Below, piece after piece: positions 6,767 to 57,962 of a DNA stretch of 64,000 nt. Under the pieces are notes generated by a model. The model saw nothing but the letters and a program-made list of their open reading frames with translations, ran no database searches and was not told where the DNA came from. The first letter of the stretch is position 1, and each line of letters starts with the position of its first letter. The position numbers were made by a program, and so were the translations under genes. Origin of the DNA: an uncultured Ruminococcus sp. (GTDB lineage Bacteria > Bacillota > Clostridia > Monoglobales > Monoglobaceae); assembly GCA_902797885.1 (NCBI GenBank), contig CADBUP010000171.1, forward strand, positions 17,687-81,686, given 5' to 3'.

Positions 6767-7255
6767 ATGCCGTTGGAAGATAAATATTATTACATTGTCA
6801 GAAAACTGATCGAAGAAAAGAAAACGATTTCCACTATGGAAAGCTGCACCGGCGGATTCATTGCCTCTATGATTACCGATATTCCAGCCGCTTCAGAAGT
6901 AATAAAAGGCGCATTTGTAACATACAGTAATGAAGCTAAAATCAAACAAGGTGTACCTGAATGGATAATTAAATCGCGTGGTGTGTACTCAAATGAAACA
7001 GCATATATGATGGCCTACGCTTGTGCAAGACAGTATAACTCAAACGTTGGAATTGGTATCACGGGATGCTTCGGTAGCATAGATCCGCAAAATAAAGACG
7101 GCGTTCCTGGCGTTGTGGATATCGCAATTGTAGACGGAATTTACTCTGATTCGTGGACAAAAACGTTCGGCCCGTTTGGTTCTCGGCATGATTATAAAAT
7201 TGCCGTAGCTGATTTCGTAGCAGATAAACTAATGGAAATCCTGGAGATCGCCTGA
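6767..7255 (+). CDS. pncC: CinA C-terminal-domain / nicotinamide-mononucleotide deamidase-like protein
   Basis: AAGGAG RBS. ISTMESCTGGFIASMITDIPAASEVIKGAFVTYSNEAK matches the ESCTGG...G.V.YSN signature of the CinA/PncC family. The upstream in-frame extension overlaps tRNA-Pro and is rejected. Confidence 0.7.
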   Translation: MPLEDKYYYIVRKLIEEKKTISTMESCTGGFIASMITDIPAASEVIKGAFVTYSNEAKIKQGVPEWIIKSRGVYSNETAYMMAYACARQYNSNVGIGITGCFGSIDPQNKDGVPGVVDIAIVDGIYSDSWTKTFGPFGSRHDYKIAVADFVADKLMEILEIA

Positions 7256-8100: not shown

Positions 8101-8127
8101 TTATTATTTTCAGAAATGGTCGTTTTC

Positions 8128-19801: not shown

Positions 19802-21063
19802 TAAATTTAGTCACCTCGGCAAGTAATTGTTGAGAAAAATGTGGTGAACCTATACATATAGGGTGTTCCATTTTTGGAGCTAACGGTAAAAATCTAAGTG
19901 ATGTGTTTAAATATATAATGAAAAGGAGGTGAAAGAATGAAACGAGCAGACTTAACTGGACAGACATTCGGGTGGTTAACCGTAGACCATTTTGAAAAAA
20001 TAATAACAGTTGGAAAAAATACAAAAAGAACTTTGTGGTCCTGTACATGTAAGTGCGGAAACACTGCATTTGCAACAACACAGGATTTAAGACAAGGTAA
20101 AGTGGTCTCATGCGGTTGCAAAAAAGCATATAACGCTAAAGATAGAATTATAGACGAAACAGGTAAAATTCATGGATTTCTTCGAGTGAAAGAAAAAGCC
20201 GGATCAGACGAGAATAGAAGAGTTTTATATCGTTGTGAATGTTTGTTGTGTGGAAAAGAGACTATTGTTTCAGGAAAGGCCTTACGTAGAGGCACAACTA
20301 AATCTTGTGGTTGTTTAAAAGTTGAAAATCGAAAGACTTTAGGAAAGAGAACCTTTAAGGATTTAACAGGCAAAACAATAGGGTATCTCTATGTCGAAAG
20401 CAGAGCAGAAAATAAATATTCTCAAGCAGGAAATCAATCAACAATGTGGAATTGCAAATGCCTCCTTTGTGGCGGGAAAACCGTTGTTGCTGGTACTGCA
20501 TTGTGGAATGGTCATACAAGATCTTGTGGATGTCTTCATATGTCATACGCAGAAAAAGACATAAACGATGAATTAATTAAGCTTAAAATTAATTTTTATC
20601 ACGATTATTCTTTCGACGATTTAATCAGCCCTTATTCAACCATGCCTTTACGTTTTGATTTTGCTCTTTTAGATGATTGGGGTTTAGTATTAGCTCTTTT
20701 AGAATATCAAGGAATTCAACACTTTCAAAAATTCAAAGATGGCTTTGGAGATATGCAAAGAGAAATCACAGATCCCATAAAAAAGGAGTATTGTAGAAAC
20801 AATAGCATTCCATTATATGAAATTCGATACAATGAAGAAATTATTCCGGCTCTACATAAAATTCTTTCAATGGTATATAACACATCATATGACAATACCG
20901 TGCCAAGCGAGCAGGAAACTGCTTGAAGGTGTAACGACTATTCCGTAAGGAAGTAGTTTGCAGGCGAAAATCCTGCTTACGAAGTGCCACACTCCTATTC
21001 TCAATAGGATGAAGAGATAGTCTACTCCCCTTGTTAAATATCGGGAAACCGAGGGTATTAAGG
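19802..21063 (+). mobile_element. group I intron (family 1) with homing-endonuclease ORF
   Basis: GGTGAACCTATACATATAGGGTGTTCC, GCTAACGGTAAAAATCTAAG, GGTGTAACGACTATTCC, GAGATAGTCTA and TCGGGAAACCGA. Joining 19801|21064 gives AT+A=Ile and ...AGNSVI|TNIATTVFSLEK. Confidence 0.75.
19937..20926 (+). CDS. intron-encoded homing endonuclease: 3 CxCxCG...SCGC modules + PD-(D/E)XK domain
   Basis: AAGGAGGTG RBS. Contains WSCTCKCGN...SCGC, YRCECLLCGK...SCGC, WNCKCLLCGG...SCGC and LRFDF...LLEYQGIQHF...IPLYEIRY. Confidence 0.75.
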   Translation: MKRADLTGQTFGWLTVDHFEKIITVGKNTKRTLWSCTCKCGNTAFATTQDLRQGKVVSCGCKKAYNAKDRIIDETGKIHGFLRVKEKAGSDENRRVLYRCECLLCGKETIVSGKALRRGTTKSCGCLKVENRKTLGKRTFKDLTGKTIGYLYVESRAENKYSQAGNQSTMWNCKCLLCGGKTVVAGTALWNGHTRSCGCLHMSYAEKDINDELIKLKINFYHDYSFDDLISPYSTMPLRFDFALLDDWGLVLALLEYQGIQHFQKFKDGFGDMQREITDPIKKEYCRNNSIPLYEIRYNEEIIPALHKILSMVYNTSYDNTVPSEQETA

Positions 21064-26230: not shown

Positions 26231-27655
26231 AGATATTTGGCCTTTTCTATGGTAACATAGAATTGAAACATGGTGAACATATAAATATATGGTGTTGGGA
26301 TAAAACCCAGCTAACGGCAGAAAGCTAAATGCGAATAGATCAACAACGAAGAAAGAAGGTGAATAAATGCCAGCGAAAAAGAATTTAATTGGCCAAACAT
26401 TTGGGTGGTTAACTGTAATTAAAGAAGCTGAACCACTTATCTTGGCGAGCGGAAAATCAAGAACACAATGTGTTTGTTTGTGCAAATGTGGAAAGGAAAC
26501 AATCGTATCCTCTCAGTCCCTTATACAAGGCACAACAATTTCTTGTGGCTGTTTTGGTGCTATCGCAAGAACAGAAGGAAAAAGAAAAGCCGTGGAAAAC
26601 AAAATGCTCGATAAGCATTTTGGTCGCTGGCACGTTGACAGTTACGCTGGACAAAAATATTTACCTTCTGGTCAAACTCGTAGCTTATGGAATTGTACAT
26701 GTGAATGCGGAACACGCAGAACATTAACTACAAATCAATTAAATGAAGGAAGTTTAAGCTGTGGATGTTTACGTAGCGAACTCGCATCTGCTAGAGAAAC
26801 AATAAATTTAATTGGTATGCGTTTCGATTCTTTAGTGGTGTTAGAAAGAATTGGTTCAAAACATTATGGAAAACAAAAATTATCCATGCCACTATGGAAA
26901 TGCAAATGCGACTGCGGAAAAGAATGCATTGCAACATCTAGAGCTTTAATTGAAGGCAGAAAAAAATCATGTGGATGTCAACGCAGATTAAACTTAGAAG
27001 GTTTACGATTTGGATTGCTTGTAGTTATAAAATACGATGAAACAAAGAAAAAATGGCTTTGTAAATGCGACTGTGGAAACCTTACATATAAAGCTGCAGG
27101 GCATCTTCGAGCTGGCAGTGCAATTAGTTGCGGTTGTCAAGCAATGTCAAAAAATGAGATAATCATAAATGACTATCTCATGAATAAAGGAGTTAAATTT
27201 GCAAATCAATATTCTTTTAAAAAACTAAAAGGGCCTAATGGCGGGCAATTGAGATTTGACTTTGCAATTTTGAATGAAGATAATTTTCCAGTCGCGTTAA
27301 TAGAGTATCAAGGGCAGCAACATTTCGAAGAAATAGAAGGATACGAATATTTCGGAAAAACGGCTCGCGATATAACGGATTTCATTAAAAGGTTGTTCTG
27401 CGATCAAACACATATAGATCTATACACAATAAGCTACAATCAAAACGTAATTGAAGAATGCGATAAAATTCTTTCACAAATAAAATTCGCACATGCCAAT
27501 GCCGTGCCAAGCTCGAAAGAGAAGGTGTAACGACTATCCCATAAGGGAGTAGAACTCAGTGAAACTCTGCGTTCGAAGCGCCATGCAACCGGTTTTACGG
27601 TTGAAGAAATAGTCTAAACCCCTAATAAATATCGGGAAACCGAGGGTATTCATTG
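26231..27655 (+). mobile_element. group I intron (family 1) with homing-endonuclease ORF
   Basis: GGTGAACATATAAATATATGGTGTTGGG, GCTAACGGCAGAAAGCTAAATG, GGTGTAACGACTATCCC, AAATAGTCTA and TCGGGAAACCGA. Joining 26230|27656 gives ...YNYLKA|DFLRVDVV, matching the DnaE LKxDFLGL box. The two exons total 1161 aa. Confidence 0.75.
26367..27530 (+). CDS. intron-encoded homing endonuclease: 4 CxCxCG...SCGC modules + PD-(D/E)XK domain
   Basis: GAAGGTG RBS. Four repeats (CVCLCKCGKE, WNCTCECGTR, WKCKCDCGKE, WLCKCDCGNL, each ending SCGC). LRFDF...LIEYQGQQHF. Confidence 0.75.
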   Translation: MPAKKNLIGQTFGWLTVIKEAEPLILASGKSRTQCVCLCKCGKETIVSSQSLIQGTTISCGCFGAIARTEGKRKAVENKMLDKHFGRWHVDSYAGQKYLPSGQTRSLWNCTCECGTRRTLTTNQLNEGSLSCGCLRSELASARETINLIGMRFDSLVVLERIGSKHYGKQKLSMPLWKCKCDCGKECIATSRALIEGRKKSCGCQRRLNLEGLRFGLLVVIKYDETKKKWLCKCDCGNLTYKAAGHLRAGSAISCGCQAMSKNEIIINDYLMNKGVKFANQYSFKKLKGPNGGQLRFDFAILNEDNFPVALIEYQGQQHFEEIEGYEYFGKTARDITDFIKRLFCDQTHIDLYTISYNQNVIEECDKILSQIKFAHANAVPSSKEKV

Positions 27656-29815: not shown

Positions 29816-30241
29816 ATGGGTTATATGTTACCATTAAGATTTATAAAGGTCTCAAATAAAAGATCAGACGTAAAACAATTCGACGTGGCAATATGCGCCA
29901 CCAGAATTGTCGCTATGATGTCTACAGATATTTATCAGGCAAGAAGAACAGTAACGGCTGAAAAAAAGGCTGGCTCACTAATTAACGCCTGCGGAACGTC
30001 TGCGACAAAAACAGCGATCTTTCTGGATAATGGCGCTGTTGTCGCGTCGCCTTTGTCTATTCCTGTTTTACTGAACTCAATCGAAAAAGCGAACAGTAAA
30101 GCCGGAGCAAAACAAACATACAGAATGAAAGTTTACGACGTAGTCGATGAAGATCCTCAGCCGGAAATTGACGAAGATATCAATGAGCTTTCCGCGTATG
30201 ACGAATCTGAAGAAGAAGATTACGATGATTATAGTGAATAA
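29816..30241 (+). CDS. RemA/DUF370-like DNA-binding regulator with acidic C-terminal tail
   Basis: ICATRIVAMMS...ARRTVTAEKKAGSLINACGTSATKTAIFLDNGAVVASPLS aligns by eye with RemA ISANRI..IVSP..APIKR...A...G.LIDAT.GR.TRAV...DS....SA. Confidence 0.55.
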   Translation: MGYMLPLRFIKVSNKRSDVKQFDVAICATRIVAMMSTDIYQARRTVTAEKKAGSLINACGTSATKTAIFLDNGAVVASPLSIPVLLNSIEKANSKAGAKQTYRMKVYDVVDEDPQPEIDEDINELSAYDESEEEDYDDYSE

Positions 30242-30292
30242 GCGGTTTTCTGGTCCGCTTTTCAAATACAATTACAATAGGAGTGATTATTA

Positions 30293-30478
30293 TTGAGTGA
30301 TTCCAACCAGATGAAGCAAAACAAAGAAGGGGATTGGGTTATGGAAAACAAGATTCAACAAATTCTGGCTGACATCGAGAACTACAAAGAAGCAATTGAG
30401 GATGCACGCAACGCATTAGCTGCGGCGGAACAGGAATTGGACGAAGAGCTCGAAAAAGAGTTAGCTCAGGAAGAATAA
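30293..30478 (+). CDS. hypothetical small coiled-coil protein (start uncertain)
   Basis: TTG at 30293. Alternative ATGs at 30311 and 30338. Confidence 0.4.
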   Translation: MSDSNQMKQNKEGDWVMENKIQQILADIENYKEAIEDARNALAAAEQELDEELEKELAQEE

Positions 30479-30485
30479 CCCTTTT

Positions 30486-30521
30486 AGAGCCGGAGGTAAA
30501 ACTCCGGCTCTTTCTTTTATT
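30486..30521 (+). terminator. rho-independent terminator
   Basis: AGAGCCGGAG-GTAAAA-CTCCGGCTCT followed by TTCTTTTATT. Confidence 0.75.
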
Positions 30522-30550
30522 AACAATTGCTCGCTAGGAGTTTATATATT

Positions 30551-30865
30551 ATGCTAACTAAACTTGAACTTGGCGCTGGTTATTTAACATTTACGAATGC
30601 GCAAGGTGAAAATTGGAGATTGGAATTAAATGGCGTTTCAGATCCAGAAATAACTGCATCATTATATGATACCTATGTAAGAGACGCTAGCGGTAATATC
30701 ATTGCCAGCATTGCTGATGGAAGGATGTTTAGTTTCAGCTGCAACGCGAGGTCAATAACGCTGGAAAAGAACAATGAATATAGGATGCAATATGCACCAA
30801 CTGAAATTTCGACAGAGTATTCAGAAGAAGACATAAGAGAATTAATTATAGGAGAACAGGAATGA
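30551..30865 (+). CDS. hypothetical protein
   Basis: AGGAG RBS 10 nt upstream of ATG 30551. Confidence 0.55.
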   Translation: MLTKLELGAGYLTFTNAQGENWRLELNGVSDPEITASLYDTYVRDASGNIIASIADGRMFSFSCNARSITLEKNNEYRMQYAPTEISTEYSEEDIRELIIGEQE

Positions 30866-31317
30866 GTTATTACGCAACTCTCGGCGGAGATATTGTCGTC
30901 AAAGAGAATAATTTCAATGAAGTATTTGAAAGAGCGGATAAGATCTTTCCTTATGCTGGAAAATGGAAAGACGGGATTGAAGTCAGCGGATATGATAACT
31001 ATCATGAAGAAGAAATCAAAGACTTCTTAGACGAAATTGCTCCATACACAGAGTCTGGTGAAATTTTCTTTACCGGCGAAGACGATACAAGATGGAAGTT
31101 CAAATTCACGGGCAATAGATGGGAAGAATTCAACTCTAAATGCGTCTATGAAGGAGAACCGTTTATTGAGTCGCCTCGCGATAAAGCTGAGCTTGTAGGT
31201 CAATTGATCGACCAGATTCAGGACAATATGCAGCTTGATTTTATAATAGATGGAGAATTATATGACACATTAAAATCAAAAATAACCGAAACGCTGCATA
31301 ACTGGAGCATTCTATGA
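30862..31317 (+). CDS. hypothetical protein
   Basis: ATGA-coupled ORF. 151 aa. Confidence 0.6.
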   Translation: MSYYATLGGDIVVKENNFNEVFERADKIFPYAGKWKDGIEVSGYDNYHEEEIKDFLDEIAPYTESGEIFFTGEDDTRWKFKFTGNRWEEFNSKCVYEGEPFIESPRDKAELVGQLIDQIQDNMQLDFIIDGELYDTLKSKITETLHNWSIL

Positions 31318-31550
31318 ATAAGACAATCACACTTAAGGACATTGTAGAAAAAATAGGCGATTGTATTATTGAGTACAGAACTTGGCTCCCAGACGGTACG
31401 GATGTTCTCAGCGGATACTGTAAGTTCGTCAATAATGAACTGATTTCATTAGATGGCGACTCATATTCTATGGATGACGTATTCGTTAAATATTCTGTGT
31501 CTCAGCAAACAAAACAAGTTACCATTTGGTACGAATCGAAATGGATTTAA
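31314..31550 (+). CDS. hypothetical protein
   Basis: ATGA-coupled ORF. 78 aa. Confidence 0.55.
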   Translation: MNKTITLKDIVEKIGDCIIEYRTWLPDGTDVLSGYCKFVNNELISLDGDSYSMDDVFVKYSVSQQTKQVTIWYESKWI

Positions 31551-31559
31551 GGATAAATT

Positions 31560-31742
31560 ATGAATTCACCTCCGTGCAAAAACTGTCAAAGTTGAATGCT
31601 GGGCTGTCACGCTATTTGTTCAGATTACACAGAATGGAAACAGAAAAAAGAAAATGAACTGAATAAAAGAAAGCAAGAATTAGATAACGTGGACACCGTC
31701 GTTCGCAGCATACTTCGCAAACACAAATATACATCGCATTAA
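31560..31742 (+). pseudogene. small Cys/His-rich protein gene with in-frame TGA (31593-31595)
   Basis: MNSPPCKNCQS*MLGCHAICSDYTEWK... The stop sits where CGA (Arg) would give a CxxCxxR..GCHxxC pattern. The downstream part alone (31596-31742) could still be translated. Confidence 0.45.
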
Positions 31743-31755
31743 AAGGGAGTTTGTT

Positions 31756-31944
31756 ATGAAAGTTAGTCCTTGTCCAAACTGCGGGCATGATCGCGCTTGG
31801 TTAATCCGTAGCATAGGAAGTAATAAAAAACGTTTCCGAATTGAATGCCCTCAATGTCATTATAAATCCGAAAATAAAAGCTCTCCAAACAAGGCGGCGA
31901 GAGCCTGGAACAAAGCAAAAGGATTGATCTCAAATGGGAGTTAG
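31756..31944 (+). CDS. Lar-family restriction-alleviation-like zinc-ribbon protein
   Basis: CPNCGH...ECPQCHY...AARAWNK matches the Lar pattern CPFCG...C..C...A..AWN. Confidence 0.55.
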   Translation: MKVSPCPNCGHDRAWLIRSIGSNKKRFRIECPQCHYKSENKSSPNKAARAWNKAKGLISNGS

Positions 31945-32131
31945 TGAAATCGTTGTATTGGTCGGTGTGTTTGTTATAGGATTCTTTGTTGGATTGGATA
32001 TTAACAATTTGTCAAAGAAATCCAGAGAACAGGAATACCACATTCAGTGGCAACAGGGTTACAACGCTGGCTGGTCAGATGCATTATCGACAAAGCAACG
32101 GTTAATGGATAGAGAAAATTTAAATCGCTAG
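31934..32131 (+). CDS. small membrane protein
   Basis: N-terminal TM (IVVLVGVFVIGFFVGL). Confidence 0.5.
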   Translation: MGVSEIVVLVGVFVIGFFVGLDINNLSKKSREQEYHIQWQQGYNAGWSDALSTKQRLMDRENLNR

Positions 32132-32143
32132 GTGGTGTTTTAA

Positions 32144-32596
32144 TTGGTATTTGTTGGAATTGATCCAGGTGCTAAGGGCGGATGGTCTATTATCCATGAA
32201 GCTGGATCTGTAGAGTCCCATATCTGGGATGATATAAAGTTTATTGAGTCTATGAGGGACTTATCATTAACGAATTATAAAAACTGCAGATGCGCATTGG
32301 AAAAGGTAGGCGCAATGCCAAAGCAGGGGTTATCTTCCACATTTAAATTTGGAGAGAGCTACGGCGAAATACAAGGAATCCTGAAAGCGCTTGGTATACC
32401 TTTCCAAACTGTTCCTCCACAAACATGGAAAAAATCTTTTAGCCTAATCAATCAAGATAAATCAAAAAGCATTGAAACAGCCCAAAAGCTTTTCCCTGGA
32501 GTTGACTTAATCCCAACAGAGCGCAGCCGTAAAGCCAGCGATGGCATGGCTGAAAGCTTATTATTGGCGGAATACGCAAGGAGACATTTTGGTTAA
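32144..32596 (+). CDS. RuvC-like Holliday junction resolvase (phage type)
   Basis: VGIDPGAKGGWSII N-terminal catalytic Asp motif. TTG start. C-terminal DGMAESLLLAEY. Confidence 0.6.
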   Translation: MVFVGIDPGAKGGWSIIHEAGSVESHIWDDIKFIESMRDLSLTNYKNCRCALEKVGAMPKQGLSSTFKFGESYGEIQGILKALGIPFQTVPPQTWKKSFSLINQDKSKSIETAQKLFPGVDLIPTERSRKASDGMAESLLLAEYARRHFG

Positions 32597-32865
32597 TGAC
32601 AAGAGAAGACGTATTGCAAACAGCGCATGATGCTGTAAACGGCAGCCGCCATGAAGATTATGGCAGCGCTGAAAATAACTTTAAGATCATCGCAAAATTC
32701 TGGAACGCGTATCTTAATATGGATAACGTAATCGAAGCCAAAGACGTAGCGGCAATGATGGCGCTTCTCAAAATAGCCAGAATTGCCAGCGGGCACGGAA
32801 AGAGCGACAATTGGGTCGATCTCGCCGGTTATGCCGCGTGCGGCGGAGAAATAGAAGGTAAGTAA
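32596..32865 (+). CDS. DUF6378-like protein
   Basis: GSRHEDYGSAENNF...MMALLKIARI pattern. Confidence 0.5.
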   Translation: MTREDVLQTAHDAVNGSRHEDYGSAENNFKIIAKFWNAYLNMDNVIEAKDVAAMMALLKIARIASGHGKSDNWVDLAGYAACGGEIEGK

Positions 32866-32880
32866 GGAAGGTGATTCCCT

Positions 32881-33159
32881 ATGCCTGAATGGGCTTGGAT
32901 TATCGCACTGTTTATCGGAATGAGCGCAGCGTATTATTGTGGCTATAAACTTGGAACTTCTGAAGCAGACGAAGCGCCATCTCAAAAGGCCTGGATTGAA
33001 GTTAGAAAATATGGCATCGACAAACAACTTGAGTCCGAAAAGTACGCTATTGACAAAGAACACGAATTCAATTTAGAGCTCATGGAACGCGGCGCGTTTG
33101 ACAAGATCGTTGAAGAAGAAAATGACGAAGACGACAAAGAGGAAAAGCAACATGGGTAA
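32881..33159 (+). CDS. small membrane protein with acidic tail
   Basis: N-terminal TM. 92 aa. Confidence 0.5.
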   Translation: MPEWAWIIALFIGMSAAYYCGYKLGTSEADEAPSQKAWIEVRKYGIDKQLESEKYAIDKEHEFNLELMERGAFDKIVEEENDEDDKEEKQHG

Positions 33160-33718
33160 ACTATGGAAACACTTTAAAACGATTTGTCTTCATAAAAAAT
33201 ATGTGTATGAAGAATGTAAAGCTTGCGGTCTGCTCTGGCAAGGAATCGTTCACGATCTGTCCAAATTTAGTCCAACGGAATTCGTTCCCTCCGCTAAGTA
33301 TTTCCAGGGAGATCGCAGCCCAATTTCTAAAGAGAAAGAAGAAATTGGATATTCTAAGGCTTGGCTGCATCATAAAGGCCGCAACAAACATCATTGGGAA
33401 TATTGGACAGACTTTGACGATAACGGAAATGTTACGTGTGTAAAAATTCCTTTTAAATATGTCGTTGAAATGGTTTGCGACTGGATTGGGGCTGGAAAAG
33501 CTTACTCAAAAGAGAAATGGGAAAATAAATCTCCTTTAGACTATTACATTGCAGTTCGCTCAGGCCGCCATTTCCATCCAGAAACAGAAGATCTTATTTT
33601 AAAGTTCTTAAACTGTATTAAAGAATATGGACTGGAAGAATTTCATGATATGGCAAAGTGCGGCTATGGATACGCATATCTTCAAGCAGACTACGATCAT
33701 CCGGGTATGTGTCCGTAA
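33152..33718 (+). CDS. DUF5662-like His-rich protein
   Basis: ATG 33152. HDLSKF...HHKGRNKHHWEYW. Confidence 0.55.
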   Translation: MGKLWKHFKTICLHKKYVYEECKACGLLWQGIVHDLSKFSPTEFVPSAKYFQGDRSPISKEKEEIGYSKAWLHHKGRNKHHWEYWTDFDDNGNVTCVKIPFKYVVEMVCDWIGAGKAYSKEKWENKSPLDYYIAVRSGRHFHPETEDLILKFLNCIKEYGLEEFHDMAKCGYGYAYLQADYDHPGMCP

Positions 33719-33744
33719 AAATAAAGAGAAGGAAATAAAATCGT

Positions 33745-34158
33745 ATGAGAGTAAAATTAGATCCAGGTGCTAAAATTCCAACAAGAGCTCACACTAAAGA
33801 TGCGGGACTTGATATTTACAGCCGCGATACAATGCTCGTGCCTGCGCATGGCAACGCCATTTTTCACACCGGTGTTCATGTCGAATTGCCAAGCGGCTCT
33901 GTCGGTATGCTGAAAAGTAAAAGCGGTCTTATGGTTGTTCACGATATTACTAGCGAAGGAACGATCGATGAAGAATACATGGGTGAAATCATTGTCAAGC
34001 TTTTTAATCACGGTAACAGAGATTATACTGTGTGTGAAGGCGACAAAATCAGTCAGCTTGTTGTGTTAAATTGCATCCGTGACACTGTGGAAATCGTAGA
34101 TGAATTTGAATATATCACAGACCGAGGAACAAACGGAATTGGAAGCACTGGAAAATAA
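33745..34158 (+). CDS. dut: dUTP diphosphatase
   Basis: All five motifs are present: AGLDI, KSKSG, GTIDEEYMGEI, GDKISQLV, RGTNGIGSTG. Confidence 0.85.
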   Translation: MRVKLDPGAKIPTRAHTKDAGLDIYSRDTMLVPAHGNAIFHTGVHVELPSGSVGMLKSKSGLMVVHDITSEGTIDEEYMGEIIVKLFNHGNRDYTVCEGDKISQLVVLNCIRDTVEIVDEFEYITDRGTNGIGSTGK

Positions 34159-34196
34159 GTTTGTCTTTATGTATTAATGTATACCTGTCTACAATT

Positions 34197-34228
34197 GCGT
34201 CATCATTCGAGAATTGACGTAAGGGAGA
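34197..34228 (+). repeat. conserved 26-nt element GCGTCATCATTCGAGAATTGACGTAA (copy 2), directly upstream of the NAD operon
   Basis: Identical to 8128-8153. Ends about 14 nt before ATG 34242. Confidence 0.6.
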
Positions 34229-34241
34229 AAAGGAGCTAGAA

Positions 34242-34790
34242 ATGAATAACATTCTTATTGTCATTGATATGCAGAATGATTTTGTCGATGGTTCATTAGG
34301 CACAAAAGAAGCTCAGGCAATTGTGCAGAAAGTTGTTGATCGAATTAATAAAGCTAAAGAAGAGCATTGGAGAATCTACTACACCCAAGATACTCACTAC
34401 GATGATTACCTTGACACGCAGGAAGGAAAAAAGCTTCCTGTAGAACATTGTGTTTATGGAACAGATGGGTACAACCTTAACCGCGAAGTAAGTAACGCAA
34501 TGAATTGCTATGAAGACCTTCACAAATATACAAAGAATACATTCGGCTGTATCGATTTGGCTGAAGATCTATGCTTTGAGGCGCAAGACGCCGGCACGGA
34601 ACATCTTATGAACATTGAGCTTATTGGCCTGTGCACAGATATTTGCGTTGTTTCCAACGCGATGCTTCTGAAAGCGTTTATTCCAGAGGCTACAGTTTCC
34701 GTCAACGCGTCCTGCTGCGCGGGCGTAACGCCTGAAAAACATGAAGCGGCGCTCAAAACAATGGAAAGCTGCCAGATTAACATTATATAA
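34242..34790 (+). CDS. pncA: nicotinamidase / isochorismatase-family cysteine hydrolase
   Basis: LIVIDMQNDF (catalytic Asp), QDTH...VEHC (metal site), K..F, GLCTDICV (catalytic Cys). Confidence 0.7.
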   Translation: MNNILIVIDMQNDFVDGSLGTKEAQAIVQKVVDRINKAKEEHWRIYYTQDTHYDDYLDTQEGKKLPVEHCVYGTDGYNLNREVSNAMNCYEDLHKYTKNTFGCIDLAEDLCFEAQDAGTEHLMNIELIGLCTDICVVSNAMLLKAFIPEATVSVNASCCAGVTPEKHEAALKTMESCQINII

Positions 34791-34801
34791 GGAGAAGAAC
34801 G

Positions 34802-35584
34802 ATGTATAATTTCGATCCTGCTGAGGCAAGAAATATTCTGGTTGAGTCAATTCGCAAAACTGTGCATATGTTAGGATCCAACAAGGTTGTAATTGGCATT
34901 TCCGGCGGCAAAGACTCCACAATTACTGCCGCATTGTGCGCTCGCGCACTAGGCAAAGAAAATGTATATGGAGTAATGCTTCCCGATGGAGAGCAATGCG
35001 ATATAGCGGATAGCATTCGTGTTTGTAATGCTTTGGGAATTCACCGTATAATTGTGAACATTCGAGAGATGCATAAAGATCTATTGCGTGAAATAGACTT
35101 TTCAAATTGTGATCCGCATACAGATAATTTTCTTGTCGATTATTCCAAAGAAGCTGATATTAACGTAGCTCCACGACTTCGTATGACGGTGCTCCGATAT
35201 ATCACGCAGGCACTGGGCGCTCGGCTGGCTGGAACAGGGAATCTGTCTGAAATCACTGTTGGCTACTGTACCAAGGACGGCGACACTTCCTGTGATTTTT
35301 CCGTTCTTGGTGGACTTACCAGCGTCGAAGTTGTCCAGGTTGGTTTAACGATGCCGGAAATTCCTCGTGATTTGGTTGTGAAGACTCCAACGGATGGACT
35401 CTCTGGAGTAAGTGACGAAGAAAAGCTTGGAATTTCTTACGACGACATTCATCATTATATTCGGAAAGACCAGGAAATTCCTAAAGTAGTGGCTGATAAA
35501 ATTGCAACAATGGAAAAGAAGAATTTTCATAAGCGTTTCCCGCCGCTGGTTATCTATAATGTGGAATGGCCGAACATTTTATAA
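34802..35584 (+). CDS. nadE: NH3-dependent NAD+ synthetase
   Basis: VVIGISGGKDSTITAAL PP-loop (SGGxDS). GVMLP. GTGNLSE...GYCTKDGD. Confidence 0.8.
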   Translation: MYNFDPAEARNILVESIRKTVHMLGSNKVVIGISGGKDSTITAALCARALGKENVYGVMLPDGEQCDIADSIRVCNALGIHRIIVNIREMHKDLLREIDFSNCDPHTDNFLVDYSKEADINVAPRLRMTVLRYITQALGARLAGTGNLSEITVGYCTKDGDTSCDFSVLGGLTSVEVVQVGLTMPEIPRDLVVKTPTDGLSGVSDEEKLGISYDDIHHYIRKDQEIPKVVADKIATMEKKNFHKRFPPLVIYNVEWPNIL

Positions 35585-35595
35585 AGGAGATTACA

Positions 35596-36228
35596 ATGGA
35601 AAAGGTTTTAGCCTTCTTTGGAGCGTTTAATCCACCAACAAAGGCTCATGTAGAACTGGCTAAGTTTGCCGCCGAGAAAACCGAACGTGATCGCGTTATC
35701 TTTATTCCGTCAAAATCTGAATACATCACAACAGAACAAAAGAAGAATTTCAGTTTCTCAGATGAAGAACGCCTCGATATGTTATACGAAGTATATGAGA
35801 AGAATTCTGATTGGATGTTATTTACCGATCATGACATTCTGTCTGAAACGCAGCCGAGATCTTATGAAACGCTCAAGTGGCTGAGAGACGAAAAGGATTA
35901 CGATCCTACGCTTCTTATTGGCGCTGATCAATTCTTTGACATGGAAGAGCATTGGAAGAACGTCCCAGAAATAGCCAAAGAATTTGGAATTGTTGTGCTT
36001 ACAAGAAGAGCCTTTTCCATTGACGCTATCATGCAGCACTCTGCGTTCTATAAAGAAATTAAGCCTCATGTACAGGTTGTGGAAACACCAAAGAATACAA
36101 GAAATGTTTCTTCTTCGTGGATCAGAAATAATATGATTGAAGTCCAGGAGCGGCTTCGCTACCTAAAGACGGATTTAACACCGGAAATTTACGATTATAT
36201 CAAGGAGTGCTACCTATATGAAATTTGA
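35596..36228 (+). CDS. nadD: nicotinate(-amide) mononucleotide adenylyltransferase
   Basis: FFGAFNPPTKAH ((H/T)xGH-type motif) and VSSSWIRN (ISSTxxR motif). AAGGAG RBS. Confidence 0.75.
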   Translation: MEKVLAFFGAFNPPTKAHVELAKFAAEKTERDRVIFIPSKSEYITTEQKKNFSFSDEERLDMLYEVYEKNSDWMLFTDHDILSETQPRSYETLKWLRDEKDYDPTLLIGADQFFDMEEHWKNVPEIAKEFGIVVLTRRAFSIDAIMQHSAFYKEIKPHVQVVETPKNTRNVSSSWIRNNMIEVQERLRYLKTDLTPEIYDYIKECYLYEI

Positions 36229-37432
36229 GCCAATAATTGATTCGCTGCTATCGACCGATCTTTATAAATTCAACATGCAACAGGTTATGTTTCATAAACA
36301 CACGGATTTATCTGGCACATACCTGTTTAAATGCCGCAATAAGGATGTTGTGTTTACTTATGAGATGCTGGATGAGATCAATGAGCAAATCGATCATCTA
36401 TGCACATTGACATTTCAGGAAGACGAACTGAATTATCTGCGGTCTATTCGGTTTATCAAATCGGACTATGTTGAATTTCTGCGGCTGTGGCGTCCTATCA
36501 GAGACTATGTGTATACCTGGTTGACTCCTAATGGAGAGTTAAATATTGAAGTCAGCGGGCCGCTGTTCTCCTGTATGCAGTTTGAAATTTACTTACTTGA
36601 AATCGTCAATGAAGTATACTTCAGAACGAAGTATGCGGATCAGTGGGCATACGTCATGAACTCAGCATATGACCGGCTTAATGATAAGATCGCTCGCTTC
36701 AATGATGGCACTTATACGTTTAAGTTTGCAGAGTTTGGCTGCCGCAGACGGCTATCCCGTTCCTGGGAAGACACCGTAGTAAGCCGGCTGGCGAAAGAAA
36801 CGAACAATATGGTTGGGACCAGCAACGTATATCTGGCTAAGAAATATGGGCTTACACCTATTGGAACTTTCGCGCATGAATTTGTCCAAATGTATCAGGG
36901 AATCCCTAAGATCCCGTTGGCCTATACCAACTACTATGCCCTCAAAGATTGGTACAACGAATACAAGGGCGACAATGGAACAGCACTGACCGACACTATT
37001 ACCACTGATCTGTTCCTTCTGGACTTTGACCGTTCTATGTGCAACAACTTTACCGGTGTTCGTCATGACAGCGGCGACCCTTACGAGTGGGGCGAAAAGA
37101 TCATTCGTCACTATGAAAAGTACGGAATTGATCCGAAAACAAAGACGCTATTGTTCTCAGATTCTTTGAATTTTGACAAGGCTCAGGCGCTGTACGATCA
37201 CTTCAAAGACAGAACAAAGGTATCGTTTGGCATTGGAACTTATGTTTCTAACGATACGATGGTCGAACCGTTGAATATCGTAATTAAATTACAATCTGTC
37301 AACGGAAATCCTGTAGCAAAGCTGTCAGACTCTGAAGGAAAAACTATGTGTCAGGATGAAAATTACGTCCAGTATCTTCGTAACGCTGTAAAATTCAGGT
37401 TAGACAGAGAAGGAAGCAGCTATGGAACCTAA
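36218..37432 (+). CDS. pncB: nicotinate phosphoribosyltransferase
   Basis: TDLYKFNMQQ, EFGCRRR, GTSNV, FAHEFVQ and RHDSGDP, the classic NaPRTase blocks. Confidence 0.8.
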   Translation: MKFEPIIDSLLSTDLYKFNMQQVMFHKHTDLSGTYLFKCRNKDVVFTYEMLDEINEQIDHLCTLTFQEDELNYLRSIRFIKSDYVEFLRLWRPIRDYVYTWLTPNGELNIEVSGPLFSCMQFEIYLLEIVNEVYFRTKYADQWAYVMNSAYDRLNDKIARFNDGTYTFKFAEFGCRRRLSRSWEDTVVSRLAKETNNMVGTSNVYLAKKYGLTPIGTFAHEFVQMYQGIPKIPLAYTNYYALKDWYNEYKGDNGTALTDTITTDLFLLDFDRSMCNNFTGVRHDSGDPYEWGEKIIRHYEKYGIDPKTKTLLFSDSLNFDKAQALYDHFKDRTKVSFGIGTYVSNDTMVEPLNIVIKLQSVNGNPVAKLSDSEGKTMCQDENYVQYLRNAVKFRLDREGSSYGT

Positions 37433-37787
37433 ATGGTTATATCGACTGGAAAGTACAGATCCTTCCAAAGGACTTTGGTATAATGCCGCTGGTGATTATG
37501 TTTGGACCATTGGCACGCTGCCAGATTGCCAAACCAAAGATCTCCCTATGGGATATGACGAACGTTACAGAAGAAATGGCAGGCACTGGTATTCATCTTG
37601 TTCCAATCCAGAAGATTTGGCGCACTGGTTTTCGTTGAACGATGCATTAAAACTTATGGAGAAAGGATTTCGGTTTATGAGGTATTTAGCTACTGAATAC
37701 ACCGAATATTCTTTGGAAACTGTTTTCATTAAAGATACGTGTTTAGACTGCCAACCAGTCGATCCACGTACTTTATATCAGGAGTAA
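37422..37787 (+). CDS. hypothetical protein co-operonic with pncB
   Basis: Overlaps pncB by 11 nt. 121 aa. No motif. Confidence 0.6.
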   Translation: MEPKWLYRLESTDPSKGLWYNAAGDYVWTIGTLPDCQTKDLPMGYDERYRRNGRHWYSSCSNPEDLAHWFSLNDALKLMEKGFRFMRYLATEYTEYSLETVFIKDTCLDCQPVDPRTLYQE

Positions 37788-37789
37788 TT

Positions 37790-38122
37790 ATGACTGTACT
37801 CTTTTTTAAAGTGGAAGATGTTTTAAATTTCCCCGAAACAGAAGCTCGATCTCCAACTGACAGACTTGGAATTGTAGACAAGCTCGTAAAAAATTTACAA
37901 AAAGAGCTCCAGGATCTCGGTCCTGGGGCTCAACTTGTTTTGTACGGAGACTGGGCAAAAGACTGGAATTTTGACAACGACTTATGCACTGCCGACGGAA
38001 AATATTTAAACAGAAAACTTGATCGCAGAGGTCTTCATATTATGGATAAAGCAGAAGGCATAAATCCGATCGTCAACTACATCGAAAAGAAACATGTTGA
38101 TCATCACAAAATATTAGCGTAA
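37790..38122 (+). CDS. hypothetical protein
   Basis: AGGAG RBS. ATG 37790. Confidence 0.55.
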   Translation: MTVLFFKVEDVLNFPETEARSPTDRLGIVDKLVKNLQKELQDLGPGAQLVLYGDWAKDWNFDNDLCTADGKYLNRKLDRRGLHIMDKAEGINPIVNYIEKKHVDHHKILA

Positions 38123-38136
38123 AGGAGAAAAGAAAA

Positions 38137-38370
38137 ATGCGTGACGAATGTATTTATCCTGAAATCTATATTCAGATGTACCGCCGAAATCTTGACAGTA
38201 AGGAACTGGCAAACTTAACTGGAATCAACTATACGTCTCTTCGCAGAAAAATGCGCGGCATCACACCGTTCAAGTTAGACGAAGCAAAATTAATTCAGAA
38301 AGCGCTTAATTGCAGGGCAACACTGGATGAGCTCTTTGATACAATTAAAAGTGAAGACACGGTAGGGTAA
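38137..38370 (+). CDS. HTH (Cro/CI-like) DNA-binding protein
   Basis: ELANLTGINYTSLRRKMRG helix-turn-helix. Confidence 0.55.
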   Translation: MRDECIYPEIYIQMYRRNLDSKELANLTGINYTSLRRKMRGITPFKLDEAKLIQKALNCRATLDELFDTIKSEDTVG

Positions 38371-38372
38371 TA

Positions 38373-38582
38373 ATGGGTGTATCAGATTTGTTAATAGGAT
38401 TGAATCCTGATATAAACAAAAGAAAAAATGTTATCAGAATGATCAAAGCGAATAATGGGTACTGCATCAGTCAGCCTGGTAAATCGCAAGATACAAAATG
38501 CCACTGTAAACGATTTAAAGAAACAGGCGAGTGCTTATGCGGTCTGTTTTTAACCTTACAAGTAGTAGAAGTTGAACATTAA
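38373..38582 (+). CDS. hypothetical small Cys-rich protein
   Basis: 69 aa. CHCKRFKETGECLCG. Confidence 0.5.
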   Translation: MGVSDLLIGLNPDINKRKNVIRMIKANNGYCISQPGKSQDTKCHCKRFKETGECLCGLFLTLQVVEVEH

Positions 38583-38593
38583 AGAGGAACGCT

Positions 38594-38923
38594 ATGAAGC
38601 TAGAAAATGAATATAGTATTCTTGTCCTGCTACTGCGCAAAATAGTTGAAGCACCAAGGCTTTCTCAACGTAAAAAGTTAGAGACAATCTTCATCCAGCG
38701 GCTGAATCAGTTTAAAAAACATATCCAGCAGGTGGATGAAAAAATAAATCGCATCGCCGATCAGGTAGCACCGAAAAAAGAAACGAGCCAGTTCGAACAA
38801 GACTACTTGAAATATGACAAGATAATGGATTGTTTTCGGTACGTTCCTAAATTAGATCCTGATAGTATATTATATAAATTTAATTTTAAGGAAGGCGGCA
38901 ACAATGAAAATAGAAACGCTTGA
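38594..38923 (+). CDS. hypothetical protein
   Basis: 109 aa. GAGGA RBS. Confidence 0.55.
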   Translation: MKLENEYSILVLLLRKIVEAPRLSQRKKLETIFIQRLNQFKKHIQQVDEKINRIADQVAPKKETSQFEQDYLKYDKIMDCFRYVPKLDPDSILYKFNFKEGGNNENRNA

Positions 38924-39530
38924 TGTTCACGGATTTGAACCGGCGATAATCGCCATGAGAAATCCATTTAATAGCTGGCCCAAATCAGACAGTTGGCGAG
39001 ACGATCCTGATTTTCATATTGGGGAGGCCGATAAAGCACTATCTTTAAAACTTCAGAAGGCCGGACCGGAACACTGTAAACATCTGCGAATGATCATAGT
39101 TTGGACAGACATAATAGCTGATTTTACTTTTTGGAAGCAGTTTGACACATATAGAGCTGGAATAGAAAAAGTATCAACGTCTACAATGCATAAACTTATG
39201 TCTCGCAAACTTACAATGAATGATTTTTCTGCTATTGAAGGCAAATATGGAAAATATTGGCCTTCTGATCTTGTTGCAGCCGTAGGCGCAATCAATATGA
39301 TGATCGAGAAATATAAAGCTTGTGATGATCCAGAGCAAAAGAAAGAGATTTGGCAAGAAGCTGTCAACCTCCTTCCTAATTCATATCTTCAAAAACGAAC
39401 CGTCATGATGTCATACGCTGCTATTAGAAATATTGTTAGGCAGCGCGAGGGTCATAAACTTGGAGAATGGAAAAAGTTTATCGACTGGGCAAAAGAGCTG
39501 CCAGAATCCTGGATGATTTTCGATGAATAA
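38904..39530 (+). CDS. ThyX (Thy1)-like fold protein, divergent (RHR box replaced by TYR)
   Basis: GPEHCKHLRMIIVWTDIIADFTFWKQFDTYR and LPNSYLQKRTVMMSYAAIRNIVRQR follow the ThyX layout, but the RHRxxS signature is not intact. Confidence 0.45.
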   Translation: MKIETLDVHGFEPAIIAMRNPFNSWPKSDSWRDDPDFHIGEADKALSLKLQKAGPEHCKHLRMIIVWTDIIADFTFWKQFDTYRAGIEKVSTSTMHKLMSRKLTMNDFSAIEGKYGKYWPSDLVAAVGAINMMIEKYKACDDPEQKKEIWQEAVNLLPNSYLQKRTVMMSYAAIRNIVRQREGHKLGEWKKFIDWAKELPESWMIFDE

Positions 39531-44230: not shown

Positions 44231-44566
44231 ATGCCTGAGAAAATTGACACTGTTAGAGAGATTCTGTATAATGAAAAAATAGAACAGATCGCGACTTTGG
44301 CGGCCGAAAAAGCAGCCGAAAGAGTCATTTCTGCTCTAACGAATCTTGACAATGAAACAGCGTATAATTTATTTTCTCCTACTAAAACTACCTTAACCGT
44401 AGAAGAAGCAGCTCACCTTATTGGGGTTTCAAAACCTACGATGTACGCTATTGTTAAAAGACCTAGTTTTCCTGCAATACATATAGGCAGAAAAATTCTA
44501 ATTTGCCGAGATGCTTTGTTGAGATGGTTAAAAGGAGAAGATAGCTATGGGGAAAAGACGGTCTAA
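44231..44566 (+). CDS. xis: excisionase-family HTH DNA-binding protein
   Basis: LTVEEAAHLIGVSKPTMYAIVKR..FPAIHIGRKILICRDALLRWL (HTH_17/excisionase pattern). Overlaps int. Confidence 0.65.
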   Translation: MPEKIDTVREILYNEKIEQIATLAAEKAAERVISALTNLDNETAYNLFSPTKTTLTVEEAAHLIGVSKPTMYAIVKRPSFPAIHIGRKILICRDALLRWLKGEDSYGEKTV

Positions 44567-45683
44567 AGGAGAAGGAACCATCAGAAAAAGAAAGGACGGC
44601 GTATGGGAAGGAAGATTCTACATTAATGGAGTTCAACGCTCTATATATAGCGGATCGCAAAACGATATAAGAAAAAAGATGACTGAATCGTTAGCGGAAA
44701 TAGATAAAGACGAATTTTTAATTGAGAACAATATGACTCTTGAGCAGTGGCTTACTACATGGCAAGAAACGTATTTGTCTGATGTGAAGGATTCCACGGC
44801 TGATAGGTATAAGTCCTGCATAAGAGTTCACATAATCCCAGGGCTTGGCAAAATACCAATATCGAATTTGAAGCAGCCTACAATACAGAAATTTCTTAAC
44901 GAGTGTAAACTTAAAAAGAAGTTGTCAAAAAAGAGTATTCAGAATATCAGACTTGTTATAAATAAAGCAATGACCGAAGCCGTTGAATGTGAACTAATTA
45001 AAAAGAATCCCTGTGCAAAAACAAAGATTCCGGTCTACAGCGAGCCAAAAAAGGAGATGAGACCAATTACTGGAAATGAAATAACCGAATTCCTGGAAAC
45101 AATAAAAGGAAACGAGTACGAGAATCTGTTTTTCGTCGCGTTGTTTACGGGAGCGAGAGAGAGCGAGTTAATCGGGTTGTCTTGGGACTGCATTGATTTT
45201 TCCACTCAGAAAATTCATCTTTACAGGCAGCTGAAAAGATCAAGAGGAAAAAATAGTAAATACGTCTTTTCTTCGCTGAAAAACAATCAAACCAGAACAT
45301 TCACCGCTCCAAAAGAAGTCATTGATGTTCTTAAAAAAGTAAAGCTTAATCAGAACGAACAGAGGCTAAAAATTGGAAACGCATGGCATAATCCTGATAA
45401 TTTAGTCTTTACGAATGAAGTTGGCATGTATATTGAGACAGTTTCTCTTTATAGAAGCTTTAAGAAAGTTGCTGCCAGTATGGGGATCCCAGAATTAAGA
45501 TTCCATGATCTGCGTCATTCATATGCTACATTAGCTCTGGAACGAGGAGTCGATTCTAAAACTGTTTCGATGAACTTAGGGCATGCGACAGTAGCTTTTA
45601 CATTAGATAAGTATGGGCACGTATCCGAAGCTATGATGAGTGATTCAGCAAATAAGATCCAATCATTCATCGAGACAATATGA
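44547..45683 (+). CDS. int: tyrosine site-specific integrase
   Basis: N-terminal SAM-like domain. TGARESELIGL (Arg I), HDLRHSYAT (HxxR), GHATVAFTLDKYGHV (catalytic Tyr). Confidence 0.85.
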   Translation: MGKRRSKGEGTIRKRKDGVWEGRFYINGVQRSIYSGSQNDIRKKMTESLAEIDKDEFLIENNMTLEQWLTTWQETYLSDVKDSTADRYKSCIRVHIIPGLGKIPISNLKQPTIQKFLNECKLKKKLSKKSIQNIRLVINKAMTEAVECELIKKNPCAKTKIPVYSEPKKEMRPITGNEITEFLETIKGNEYENLFFVALFTGARESELIGLSWDCIDFSTQKIHLYRQLKRSRGKNSKYVFSSLKNNQTRTFTAPKEVIDVLKKVKLNQNEQRLKIGNAWHNPDNLVFTNEVGMYIETVSLYRSFKKVAASMGIPELRFHDLRHSYATLALERGVDSKTVSMNLGHATVAFTLDKYGHVSEAMMSDSANKIQSFIETI

Positions 45684-57466: not shown

Positions 57467-57962
57467 CAATTGTGTTATCGTGAAGGCTCTTTATCCTTCA
57501 CTTCTTATAGTTTCCTATAAGTTCGGACTATATCTTCACCCATCGCATTATTGCGATTAGGGGTCGGGCACTTGTATTAGGATTATTGATTACCGTTCTC
57601 ACCTATTAGTCTCTGAACCTTCCGAGATACTATTATCGGTATTCTCTCGGCTTGGCTGCTGATTACCATATTCACATATATAATTTTGATCATATGGCTT
57701 ATCTCTTAAATATCAAGATTTTATCTGAATTAATGTCCAATTCTCTCGCTGCAAATTCTTTACTGAGATATAATTTTTATTAGTGTCTATTTTGTACCAT
57801 TCATATACGTAATACATTATTATCTCCTATTTGTTTCATGCGAACTTAGGCTTCCAGCAATTCACCCGATTGCCAGTGCGGATTACGCCGCACAAGTGCC
57901 ATTGGCGAAAATAGTTTTCGTATTGAAGAAACGCTTGGTTGAATTACGAATCTTCGTTAAGC
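57467..57962 (-). mobile_element. group I intron (family 2, Tetrahymena/IC-like P7 landmarks) with decayed GIY-YIG remnant
   Basis: The minus strand has GGTTCAGAGACTAATAGG (57602-57619) and GAAGATATAGTCCGAAC (57521-57537), which are P7 5'/3' landmarks. GAAA-tetraloop hairpin CTTATAGGAAACTATAAG (57503-57520). Joining 57963|57466 gives T+GT=Cys, in frame. Confidence 0.6.
57713..57817 (-). pseudogene. 34-aa remnant of a GIY-YIG homing endonuclease inside the intron
   Basis: AGGAG RBS. MYYVYEWYKIDTNKNYISVKNLQRENW... parallels I-TevI GIYQIKNTLNNKVYVGSAKDFEKRW (recalled from memory), then terminates. Confidence 0.4.

Follow-up and report, generated by a model that had tools for sequence, protein, structure and literature searches.

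A putative four-step nicotinamide salvage cassette maintained in a temperate, Clostridia-associated phage

We analyzed a 64,000-nucleotide stretch of DNA (the window) from a metagenome contig of 147,132 bp, CADBUP010000171.1, assigned to an uncultured Ruminococcus sp. The window is phage DNA by its gene content. Four of its genes, pncA, nadE, nadD and pncB, form a contiguous, co-oriented cassette of about 3.2 kb with intact catalytic residues. Judged from their sequences, the four proteins very probably provide a working route from nicotinamide to nicotinamide adenine dinucleotide (NAD+), and the cassette would then be a working, phage-maintained copy of a nicotinamide salvage operon of Clostridia. 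The original prediction, made from the DNA letters alone, proposed a survey of phages for the same synteny, and this survey found the four-step cassette again in many viral contigs, where purifying selection acts on it. The four genes and their predicted products are as follows.

pncA, 34242..34790, plus strand: nicotinamidase of the isochorismatase fold, 182 amino acids; step 1, nicotinamide to nicotinate and ammonia (NH3)
nadE, 34802..35584, plus strand: NH3-dependent NAD+ synthetase, 260 amino acids; step 4, nicotinate adenine dinucleotide (NaAD), ATP and NH3 to NAD+
nadD, 35566..36228 (or from a start at 35596), plus strand: adenylyltransferase for nicotinate mononucleotide (NaMN), possibly also for nicotinamide mononucleotide (NMN); step 3
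pncB, 36218..37432, plus strand: nicotinate phosphoribosyltransferase; step 2, nicotinate and phosphoribosyl pyrophosphate (PRPP), with ATP, to NaMN

The cassette had originally been placed at 33745-37787. The four genes do lie within this span, but its start does not belong to them: 33745-34158 is a dUTPase gene, and pncA begins at 34242, with an AAGGAG 7 nucleotides 5' of its ATG. Along the cassette, nadE and nadD overlap by 19 nucleotides if nadD starts at 35566 and are separated by an 11-nucleotide gap if it starts at 35596, which is the start called on the source contig (210 amino acids). The nadD and pncB genes overlap by 11 nucleotides, as do pncB and the following gene, orf121.

The motifs quoted for the four proteins in the original prediction are all present in the translations, and the identities given to them are supported by Pfam, NCBIfam and the PDB. 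The deamidating route proposed there, from nicotinamide through nicotinate, NaMN and NaAD to NAD+, likewise matches the four enzyme assignments. PncA carries the motifs DMQNDF and CTDIC and belongs to the isochorismatase family (PF00857, 9.2e-24); no NCBIfam equivalog matched it at or above its cut-off. Its best PDB match is the P. horikoshii pyrazinamidase/nicotinamidase (1ilw, 4.6e-10), and M. tuberculosis PncA (3pl1) was also matched. Residues D9, D50, H52, H69 and C135 align with D10, D52, H54, H71 and C133 of 1ilw (positions in 1ilw counted by hand), which we take to be functional sites of that enzyme. Across 26 viral homologues the triad D9, K98 and C135 and the metal site D50, H52 and H69 are at least 95% conserved. 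NadE is an NAD synthase (PF02540, 1.2e-46; TIGR00552 score 153 against a cut-off of 64) that has no glutaminase domain in its 260 residues. Its best PDB match is 2e18 (2.5e-27), and the first eight matches are all named NH(3)-dependent NAD(+) synthetase. The PP-loop SGGKDS is intact, and G32, S34, G35, G36, D38 and S39 are at least 95% conserved in 25 viral homologues.

NadD matches the cytidylyltransferase-like family (CTP_transf_like, PF01467, 4.5e-18) and scores 103.7 with TIGR00482, just below the cut-off of 112.45. Among PDB entries it matches S. aureus NadD (2h29, 2e-7) and an NMN/NaMN adenylyltransferase (9rpk, 1.9e-4). Its motifs are GAFNPPTKAH, in which T replaces the first H of HxGH, and SSSWIR; the corresponding patterns GxFNPxTxAH and SSxxxR are both at least 90% conserved in 13 viral homologues. 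The protein is assigned at the level of the NadD family, and its preference for NaMN or NMN lies beyond the reach of sequence. PncB has both domains of nicotinate phosphoribosyltransferases (NAPRTase_N and NAPRTase, PF17767 and PF04095), scores 440 with TIGR01514 (cut-off 270) and 504 with NF003704, and matches the PDB entry 3os4 (8.8e-93), in which H220 is aligned (GTFAHEF with GTQAHEW). The motifs DLYKFNM, EFGCRRR and HDSGDP are present. H220, R176-R178, D284 and S285 do not vary among 16 diverse phage PncBs, and H220, RRR and DSG are conserved in 30 viral homologues. The PHROG family for nicotinamide phosphoribosyltransferase (Nampt) gave only a weak match (1e-19).

That the element is a phage, as originally proposed, is evident from its genes, which include a primase/helicase, a single-stranded DNA-binding protein, a PD-(D/E)XK nuclease, a Holliday-junction resolvase, an endolysin, tail fibers and a tyrosine integrase. 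The integrase gene identifies the phage as temperate.

integrase, 44547-45683: tyrosine integrase, the basis for calling the phage temperate

The NAD cassette sits in a plus-strand block of replication and nucleotide-metabolism genes, past the genes for the alpha subunit of DNA polymerase III (PolIII-alpha, interrupted in the window by an HNH endonuclease), the Holliday-junction resolvase (phrog_1770) and the dUTPase. Its guanine-plus-cytosine (GC) content is 0.42, compared with 0.40 for the rest of the window. A promoter and terminator scan of 31000-39000 returned 19 and 6 sites, respectively, against 20.4 and 6.4 expected, and so gave no signal beyond chance; Rfam found no NAD+ riboswitch in the window at its gathering thresholds.

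Relatives of PncB are encoded on at least 517 stretches in IMG/VR. We surveyed the 8 kb around pncB in 91 viral loci (L001-L032 and L145-L203). Within this distance, pncA is found in 71 of the 91 loci and nadE in 79, while the adenylyltransferase is NadD-type in 31 and NadM-type in 23. All four steps are present in 51 of the 91 loci, and in 41 of the 67 loci that are at least 15 kb long. The operon context of pncA and pncB is found in both bacteria and phages.

The arrangement of the genes is highly variable: the 91 loci show more than 20 gene orders, and the order seen in the window occurs in six of them. A NadM-type enzyme is often present where no NadD is detectable, and some NadM-type enzymes are fused to a Nudix domain and an NrtR-type winged-helix module. 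For instance, a single protein of L017 (5959-7383) combines the Nudix, NrtR-type winged-helix and NadM-type parts, and long members of the same cluster occur in L018 (5930-7384) and L029 (6786-7967). Fusions of nadD with nadE were seen in three viral loci, L004 (9578-10825), L011 and L022. That four steps are kept through rearrangement, through replacement of an enzyme by an unrelated one and through fusion argues for selection on the whole pathway. The ratio of nonsynonymous to synonymous substitution rates (dN/dS) between phage copies is 0.01-0.31 for all four genes, which argues against a decaying passenger. Only the closer phage-to-phage pairs, in which dS is unsaturated, were used for these estimates, because dS is saturated between the window and the nearest phage copies.

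In GenBank phages the cassette as a whole had no megablast match. A protein search returned only 20 GenBank phage records with a relative of PncB, all below 60% identity. Among four of these that we inspected, MT835470 has weak matches to pncA, nadE and nadD around pncB, LR756501 has nadE, and in Atu_ph07 an annotated ADP-ribose pyrophosphatase lies close to the PncB relative.

The other neighbors of pncB in the 91 viral loci include Macro (20 loci), Nudix (17), GmrSD_N-domain (14), CCA-adding enzyme (11), Thg1 (9-10), RNA ligase (6) and NADAR (3) genes. This set mixes ADP-ribose processing with tRNA repair, and fits the NAD and ADP-ribose conflict neighborhoods surveyed in PMC9503650. The window itself has none of these neighbors. 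Tyrosine recombinases lie near the cassette in 12 of the 91 loci, and in L006, L010 and L027, where they were identified by reading the sequence.

In a scan of one genome per species, we kept the best 80 loci by PncB similarity. Nearly all of them carry a Clostridia-class or related Bacillota label and come from ruminant gut samples, and they include isolates of Ruminococcus flavefaciens. The order pncA-nadE-nadD-pncB is identical in 9 of the 80. Amino acid identity between the cassette and the copies in these nine is 52-59% for PncA, 62-67% for NadE and 38-49% for NadD; for PncB it is 74-77%, over the 80 loci. With the same gene order and this level of PncB identity, the cassette matches a host-type operon. 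The chromosomal operon nrtR-pncA-nadE-nadD-pncB of rumen and gut Clostridia (for example in L059, L040 and L060) has the same four genes in the same order as the phage, whereas the phage cassette has no NrtR gene upstream; a dUTPase gene and a DUF5662 gene stand there instead, and orf121 follows downstream. The unusual GAFNPPT.AH motif of the window NadD also has a chromosomal counterpart, GAFNPPTTAH, in L059.

We considered whether the bacterial four-gene loci might themselves be prophages. For the two loci examined, chromosomal flanks rule this out: in L059 NrtR lies directly upstream of the operon with DnaE nearby, and in L060 PolC, CysS and IspG flank it. In L059 we also observed an apparent nadD-pncB fusion ORF (open reading frame) of 601 amino acids at 7389-9194.

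The bacterial loci with the same gene order have a GC content of 0.53-0.63, compared with 0.42 for the phage cassette. In a rough neighbor-joining tree, the PncB of the window groups with those of viral loci sharing its gene order (L001-L003, L005, L006 and L010), and this group falls outside the cluster of the 80 bacterial sequences; the tree is indicative only, because the bacterial sample was the top 80 by similarity. The phage-like GC content and the placement of PncB argue against a recent capture.

We propose the following mechanism. PncA would deamidate nicotinamide to nicotinate, releasing NH3; PncB would couple nicotinate to PRPP, with ATP, to give NaMN; NadD would adenylate NaMN to NaAD; and the NH3-dependent NadE would amidate NaAD to NAD+. 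Such a route spends one PRPP and three ATP per NAD+, and the NH3 released by PncA equals that consumed by NadE. Because the cassette lies among replication and nucleotide-metabolism genes, it is probably co-expressed with them, and without the NrtR repressor gene the phage copy is probably free of regulation by the host. The capacity of the infected cell to return nicotinamide to NAD+ would rise. Bacterial immune systems commonly act by depleting NAD+, and the most likely benefit would be to keep NAD+ available when NAD+-cleaving enzymes (NADases) of the TIR, SIR2 and SEFIR types split it into nicotinamide and ADP-ribose. The logic would be that of NARP2, with the four-step deamidated pathway of these hosts doing the work.

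NARP2 consists of Nampt and Nmnat, which are described as salvaging nicotinamide so that the phage counters NAD+ depletion (10.1101/2024.02.11.579819; PMC13464706). In both NARP2 and the cassette, nicotinamide goes in and NAD+ comes out, PRPP and ATP are needed, and a canonical cellular salvage route is carried by a phage. NARP2 takes two steps via NMN, whereas the cassette would take four, via nicotinate, NaMN and NaAD, with deamidation and re-amidation. The phosphoribosyltransferase of the cassette is a nicotinate phosphoribosyltransferase equivalog (TIGR01514) and not a Nampt, so that the cassette is not a NARP2. NARP2 has been tested experimentally, whereas the cassette is known from sequence alone. 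Like the cassette route, NARP1 (Adps and Namat) restores NAD+, but it does so from ADP-ribose and nicotinamide via ADP-ribose pyrophosphate (ADPR-PP). NARP3 (PnuC and NadR), published in August 2026 (PMC13464706), also restores NAD+ but imports nicotinamide riboside. Our Pfam scan took in 39 ORFs of the window, and the minus-strand structural ORFs were scanned with PHROGs only. The NARP1 set (a PRPS-like Adps and Namat) is absent among the 39 ORFs, and neither family of the NARP3 set (PnuC and a NadR-like kinase/adenylyltransferase) was found among the window ORFs scanned.

The preprint on NARP1 and NARP2 (10.1101/2024.02.11.579819) does not mention PncA, PncB, NadD or NadE. A survey of 21,191 viral proteomes lists NadV, NadM and NadR as the only phage NAD+ synthesis enzymes, and interprets phage NAD+ salvage as acting against depletion (PMC9503650). 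Preiss-Handler clusters were reported in 2024 from the sequences of gut jumbo phages, for example pncB-nadD-nadE in Kuafu_71; the authors link NAD+ use to counter-defense and read the clusters as promoting NAD+ production for propagation, and pncA appears only in their discussion section (PMC11662467). The two cases are alike in that a phage genome carries pncB, nadD and nadE as a cluster and in that both claims come from sequence. They differ in genome size (more than 200 kb for the jumbo phages, 147 kb for the contig here) and in host, as Bacteroidota are the predicted hosts of the Kuafu clade (Kuafu_71 being a member by its name), whereas the window phage is temperate and associated with Clostridia. 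The Kuafu_71 cluster starts at nicotinate, without pncA, whereas the operon of the window includes pncA, which makes nicotinamide the entry point. Our literature search gave no publication that describes a nicotinamidase route in phages or a "NARP4". The concept of phage NAD+ salvage and similar clusters are already in the literature, and the route of the window is a variant of it. The view that the cassette would be a third enzymatic solution is outdated, given NARP3 and the jumbo-phage clusters.

By analogy with NARP2, we tentatively favor, at slightly under an even chance, the reading that the cassette counters NAD+ depletion during abortive infection of the NADase type. The Macro, Nudix and NADAR neighbors in related viral loci would support it, as these are ADP-ribose-processing domains of NAD conflict systems. 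Several observations weigh on the other side. No Macro, Nudix, NADAR, ADP-ribosyltransferase or other defense-linked NAD gene was found among the window ORFs scanned. At one PRPP and three ATP per NAD+, and with nicotinamide reused but not ADP-ribose, the route may not keep pace with an NADase. Hosts of the clade already own the operon, so that the phage would gain only dose or regulation. A CinA/PncC homologue encoded elsewhere in the window points more to the recycling of NMN from NAD-dependent DNA ligase, a housekeeping role (PMC3855486). The phage is temperate, with its integrase at 44547-45683, and its 16 closest backbone relatives (IMG/VR contigs of 16-151 kb) all lack the cassette.

These relatives share with the window a syntenic stretch that runs from the PD-(D/E)XK nuclease, past PolIII and a RemA-like gene, to orf127 and further. 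Between the latter two markers lies a variable slot (30241-37739 in the window), which in the window holds the resolvase, a DUF6378 gene, the DUF5662 gene and the dUTPase gene besides the NAD cassette. It measures 7.5 kb in the window and roughly 2-4 kb in those backbone relatives that have both markers (L119-L134 were compared). With the cassette absent from all 16 relatives and the slot smaller in those that have both markers, we regard the cassette as accessory in this lineage.

A more ambitious form of the counter-defense reading holds that the cassette is a fourth, deamidating pathway of phage NAD+ reconstitution (PncA, PncB, NadD or NadM, and NadE), captured from Firmicutes hosts and widespread in viral contigs, that rescues infection from TIR, SIR2 and SEFIR NADases, with a DUF5662 subfamily and perhaps orf121 adding steps such as the processing of an ADP-ribose derivative. 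We consider this conceivable, with the balance leaning against it.

The cassette could instead serve a general supply of NAD+ for replicating a genome of about 147 kb, with PncC recycling the NMN released by ligase, so that these would be ordinary auxiliary metabolic genes. Its place within the replication and nucleotide-metabolism block suits this explanation, as do the PncC-domain gene (PncC being tied to the relief of ligase from NMN; PMC3855486), the jumbo-phage study that reads similar clusters as NAD+ production for propagation (PMC11662467) and the lack of any defense-linked gene adjoining the cassette in the window. However, neither an NAD-dependent ligase nor another NAD consumer was found in the scanned window ORFs or in the 10 kb to the left, and the hosts already own the operon. 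The Macro, Nudix and NADAR genes beside the cassette in related phages, and a patchy, accessory distribution resembling that of counter-defense genes, also speak against simple supply. On this evidence we judge it plausible, though somewhat improbable.

Lysogenic conversion is unlikely. Under this explanation, a cassette expressed from the prophage would give the lysogen extra or deregulated salvage of niacin and nicotinamide in the vitamin-limited rumen. The integrase of the window, the tyrosine recombinases near the cassette in L006, L010 and L027 and in 12 of the 91 loci, and the absence from the cassette of the NrtR repressor gene seen in L059 are consistent with it. However, the cassette is co-oriented and tightly packed within the lytic replication block and its promoter and terminator signals are at chance level, whereas typical morons are separate transcription units near prophage ends.

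It is very improbable that the cassette is a neutral passenger, acquired by the temperate phage with a fragment of host chromosome and of no benefit to it: its gene order is identical to that of the bacterial operon and it is missing from the 16 closest backbone relatives, but its reading frames and catalytic residues are intact, its GC content fits the phage and not the same-order bacterial loci, its PncB belongs to a viral group outside the sampled bacterial cluster, dN/dS between phage copies is low (0.01-0.31), and the four steps are still kept where the adenylyltransferase was repeatedly replaced and genes were fused. The original prediction had named a recent host-derived passenger absent from relatives as one of the findings that would undo it; the host-type match and the absence from 16 of 16 relatives were indeed found, whereas GC content and the rough tree argue against recency, and dN/dS against decay.

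The proven phage answers to NAD+ depletion all come from model systems (NARP1 and NARP2 in their original study, and NARP3 in phages of Enterobacteriaceae). If the deamidated route counters defense, phages would co-opt whichever salvage route their host clade uses. The cassette would then be a new anti-defense module for detection tools, in phages of Clostridia-type hosts, and counter-defense would account for the retention of a costly pathway of four enzymes in hundreds of viral contigs. If the cassette is only a metabolic booster, it would still clearly exemplify the capture of a whole operon that phages then kept over the long term. With a length of only about 3.2 kb and enzymes for which standard assays exist, the cassette lends itself to a direct test of the idea.

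The CinA/PncC homologue lies 27 kb from the cassette, between genes for tRNA-Pro and tRNA-Arg.

CinA/PncC-domain protein, 6767..7255, plus strand: PF02464 (3.5e-29); TIGR00199 score 77.9 against a cut-off of 68.9

The homologue named at these positions in the original prediction is thus real, and its best structural relative is T. thermophilus CinA (PDB 4ct8, 1e-12). A longer, GTG-started ORF (6656-7255) overlaps the tRNA-Pro gene, so the ATG at 6767 is the likely start. The region 5955-7344 holds tRNA genes for Gly-TCC, Pro-TGG and Arg-TCT. PncC is tied to the relief of DNA ligase from inhibition by NMN, and active members have the blocks P-I AESCTGG, P-II G(A/S)S, P-III YxNxxK, P-VI (S/T)G(I/V)AGPxGG and P-VIII Rxx(V/I)R (PMC3855486). 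The phage protein keeps P-I (MESCTGG) and P-III (YSNEAK), whereas P-II is AAS, with the glycine lost, P-VI is TGCFGSIDP, with only T-G kept, and P-VIII is RHDYK. Among viral contigs, relatives of this protein were found at only one locus, L135 (43% identity), whose contig also encodes a PncB (L186) about 65 kb off, and the viral contigs searched showed no consistent linkage between CinA and the NAD cassette. The proposed link of the homologue to the cassette is weak, given the single viral relative; it is possible that the protein is an NMN deamidase feeding NaMN to NadD.

Two genes stand upstream of pncA within the same slot, and one follows pncB.

dut, 33745..34158, plus strand: dUTPase (PF00692, 3e-24; TIGR00576, 3.3e-33), outside the NAD pathway
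DUF5662 protein, 33098..33718 (probable start 33152), plus strand: PF18907 (6.7e-41), two genes upstream of pncA
orf121, 37422..37787, plus strand: conserved phage protein, translationally coupled to pncB

DUF5662 genes lie within 8 kb of pncB in 32 of the 91 viral loci, often between pncA and pncB (L013, L015, L021, L023, L025 and L030 are among the loci that have one), and in none of the 80 bacterial loci. Of the 80 viral DUF5662 loci closest to the window copy, none has NAD genes nearby. It is possible that the family is a phage-specific companion of NAD cassettes. The structural model of the protein is almost entirely helical, with a predicted local distance difference test score (pLDDT) of 90.9. 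Sequence and fold searches of the PDB gave no significant match; the best hints were proteins of the HD superfamily, at a probability of at most 0.28. The residues H7, H34-D35, H73/H74, H80/H81 and D110 are invariant, in an H..HD..H..D pattern, and the model suggests that the protein is possibly a divergent HD phosphohydrolase. A literature search gave no paper mentioning the family.

The gene orf121 had been described as an unknown gene in the operon. It is a real, conserved gene, with 178 homologue clusters at E values of at most 0.001 and homologues in many viral and metagenomic contigs, but it is not specifically tied to the NAD genes: it lies away from any NAD gene in L033-L038 and L128. 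The idea that it is a dedicated component of the pathway was rejected on this ground and, since it is usually distant from NAD genes, we treat it as a neighbor and not as a pathway member. In L004 (8001-9572) it forms an in-frame C-terminal extension of PncB. The 120 homologues listed have 58-88% identity, none is functionally named and all but one lack a Pfam domain; no Pfam family was found among 37 members tested. Its AlphaFold model has a pLDDT of 88.5. Neither a sequence profile nor a fold search gave a PDB match (best E value 1.4), and its structural matches in BFVD are uncharacterized proteins of many unrelated phages. A minimal R-S-E ADP-ribosyltransferase was also considered, based on the invariant residues Y7-R8, S58-S59 and E95/E99 and on very weak Foldseek matches to small ADP-ribosyltransferases (probability at most 0.3, TM score below 0.4), and was set aside as unsupported and quite unlikely.

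Elsewhere in the window, roughly six group I introns or homing-endonuclease elements appear to be present. The positions concerned are 4245-4316, 12213-12392, 13919-15266, 19837-20993 and 26261-27652 on the plus strand and 57504-57923 on the minus strand. Two families of repeats, one of 61 nucleotides resembling a 5' intron element and one of 52-72 nucleotides resembling a 3' element, flank the ORFs 3337-4257, 14023-15207 and 19937-20926, as well as the HNH ORF inserted in PolIII-alpha. A copy without an ORF (12183-12454) matches the entire Rfam group I intron model below its threshold (E value 2.9e-4), and the minus strand holds one more group I intron, above the Rfam threshold. At the left end of the window (227-4257), a 354-amino-acid protein with no family match, a ThiF/E1-like protein (1288-1956) and a reverse transcriptase (2268-3182) are grouped. 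An RVT_1 gene also lies close to the orf121 homologues in L036 and L037.

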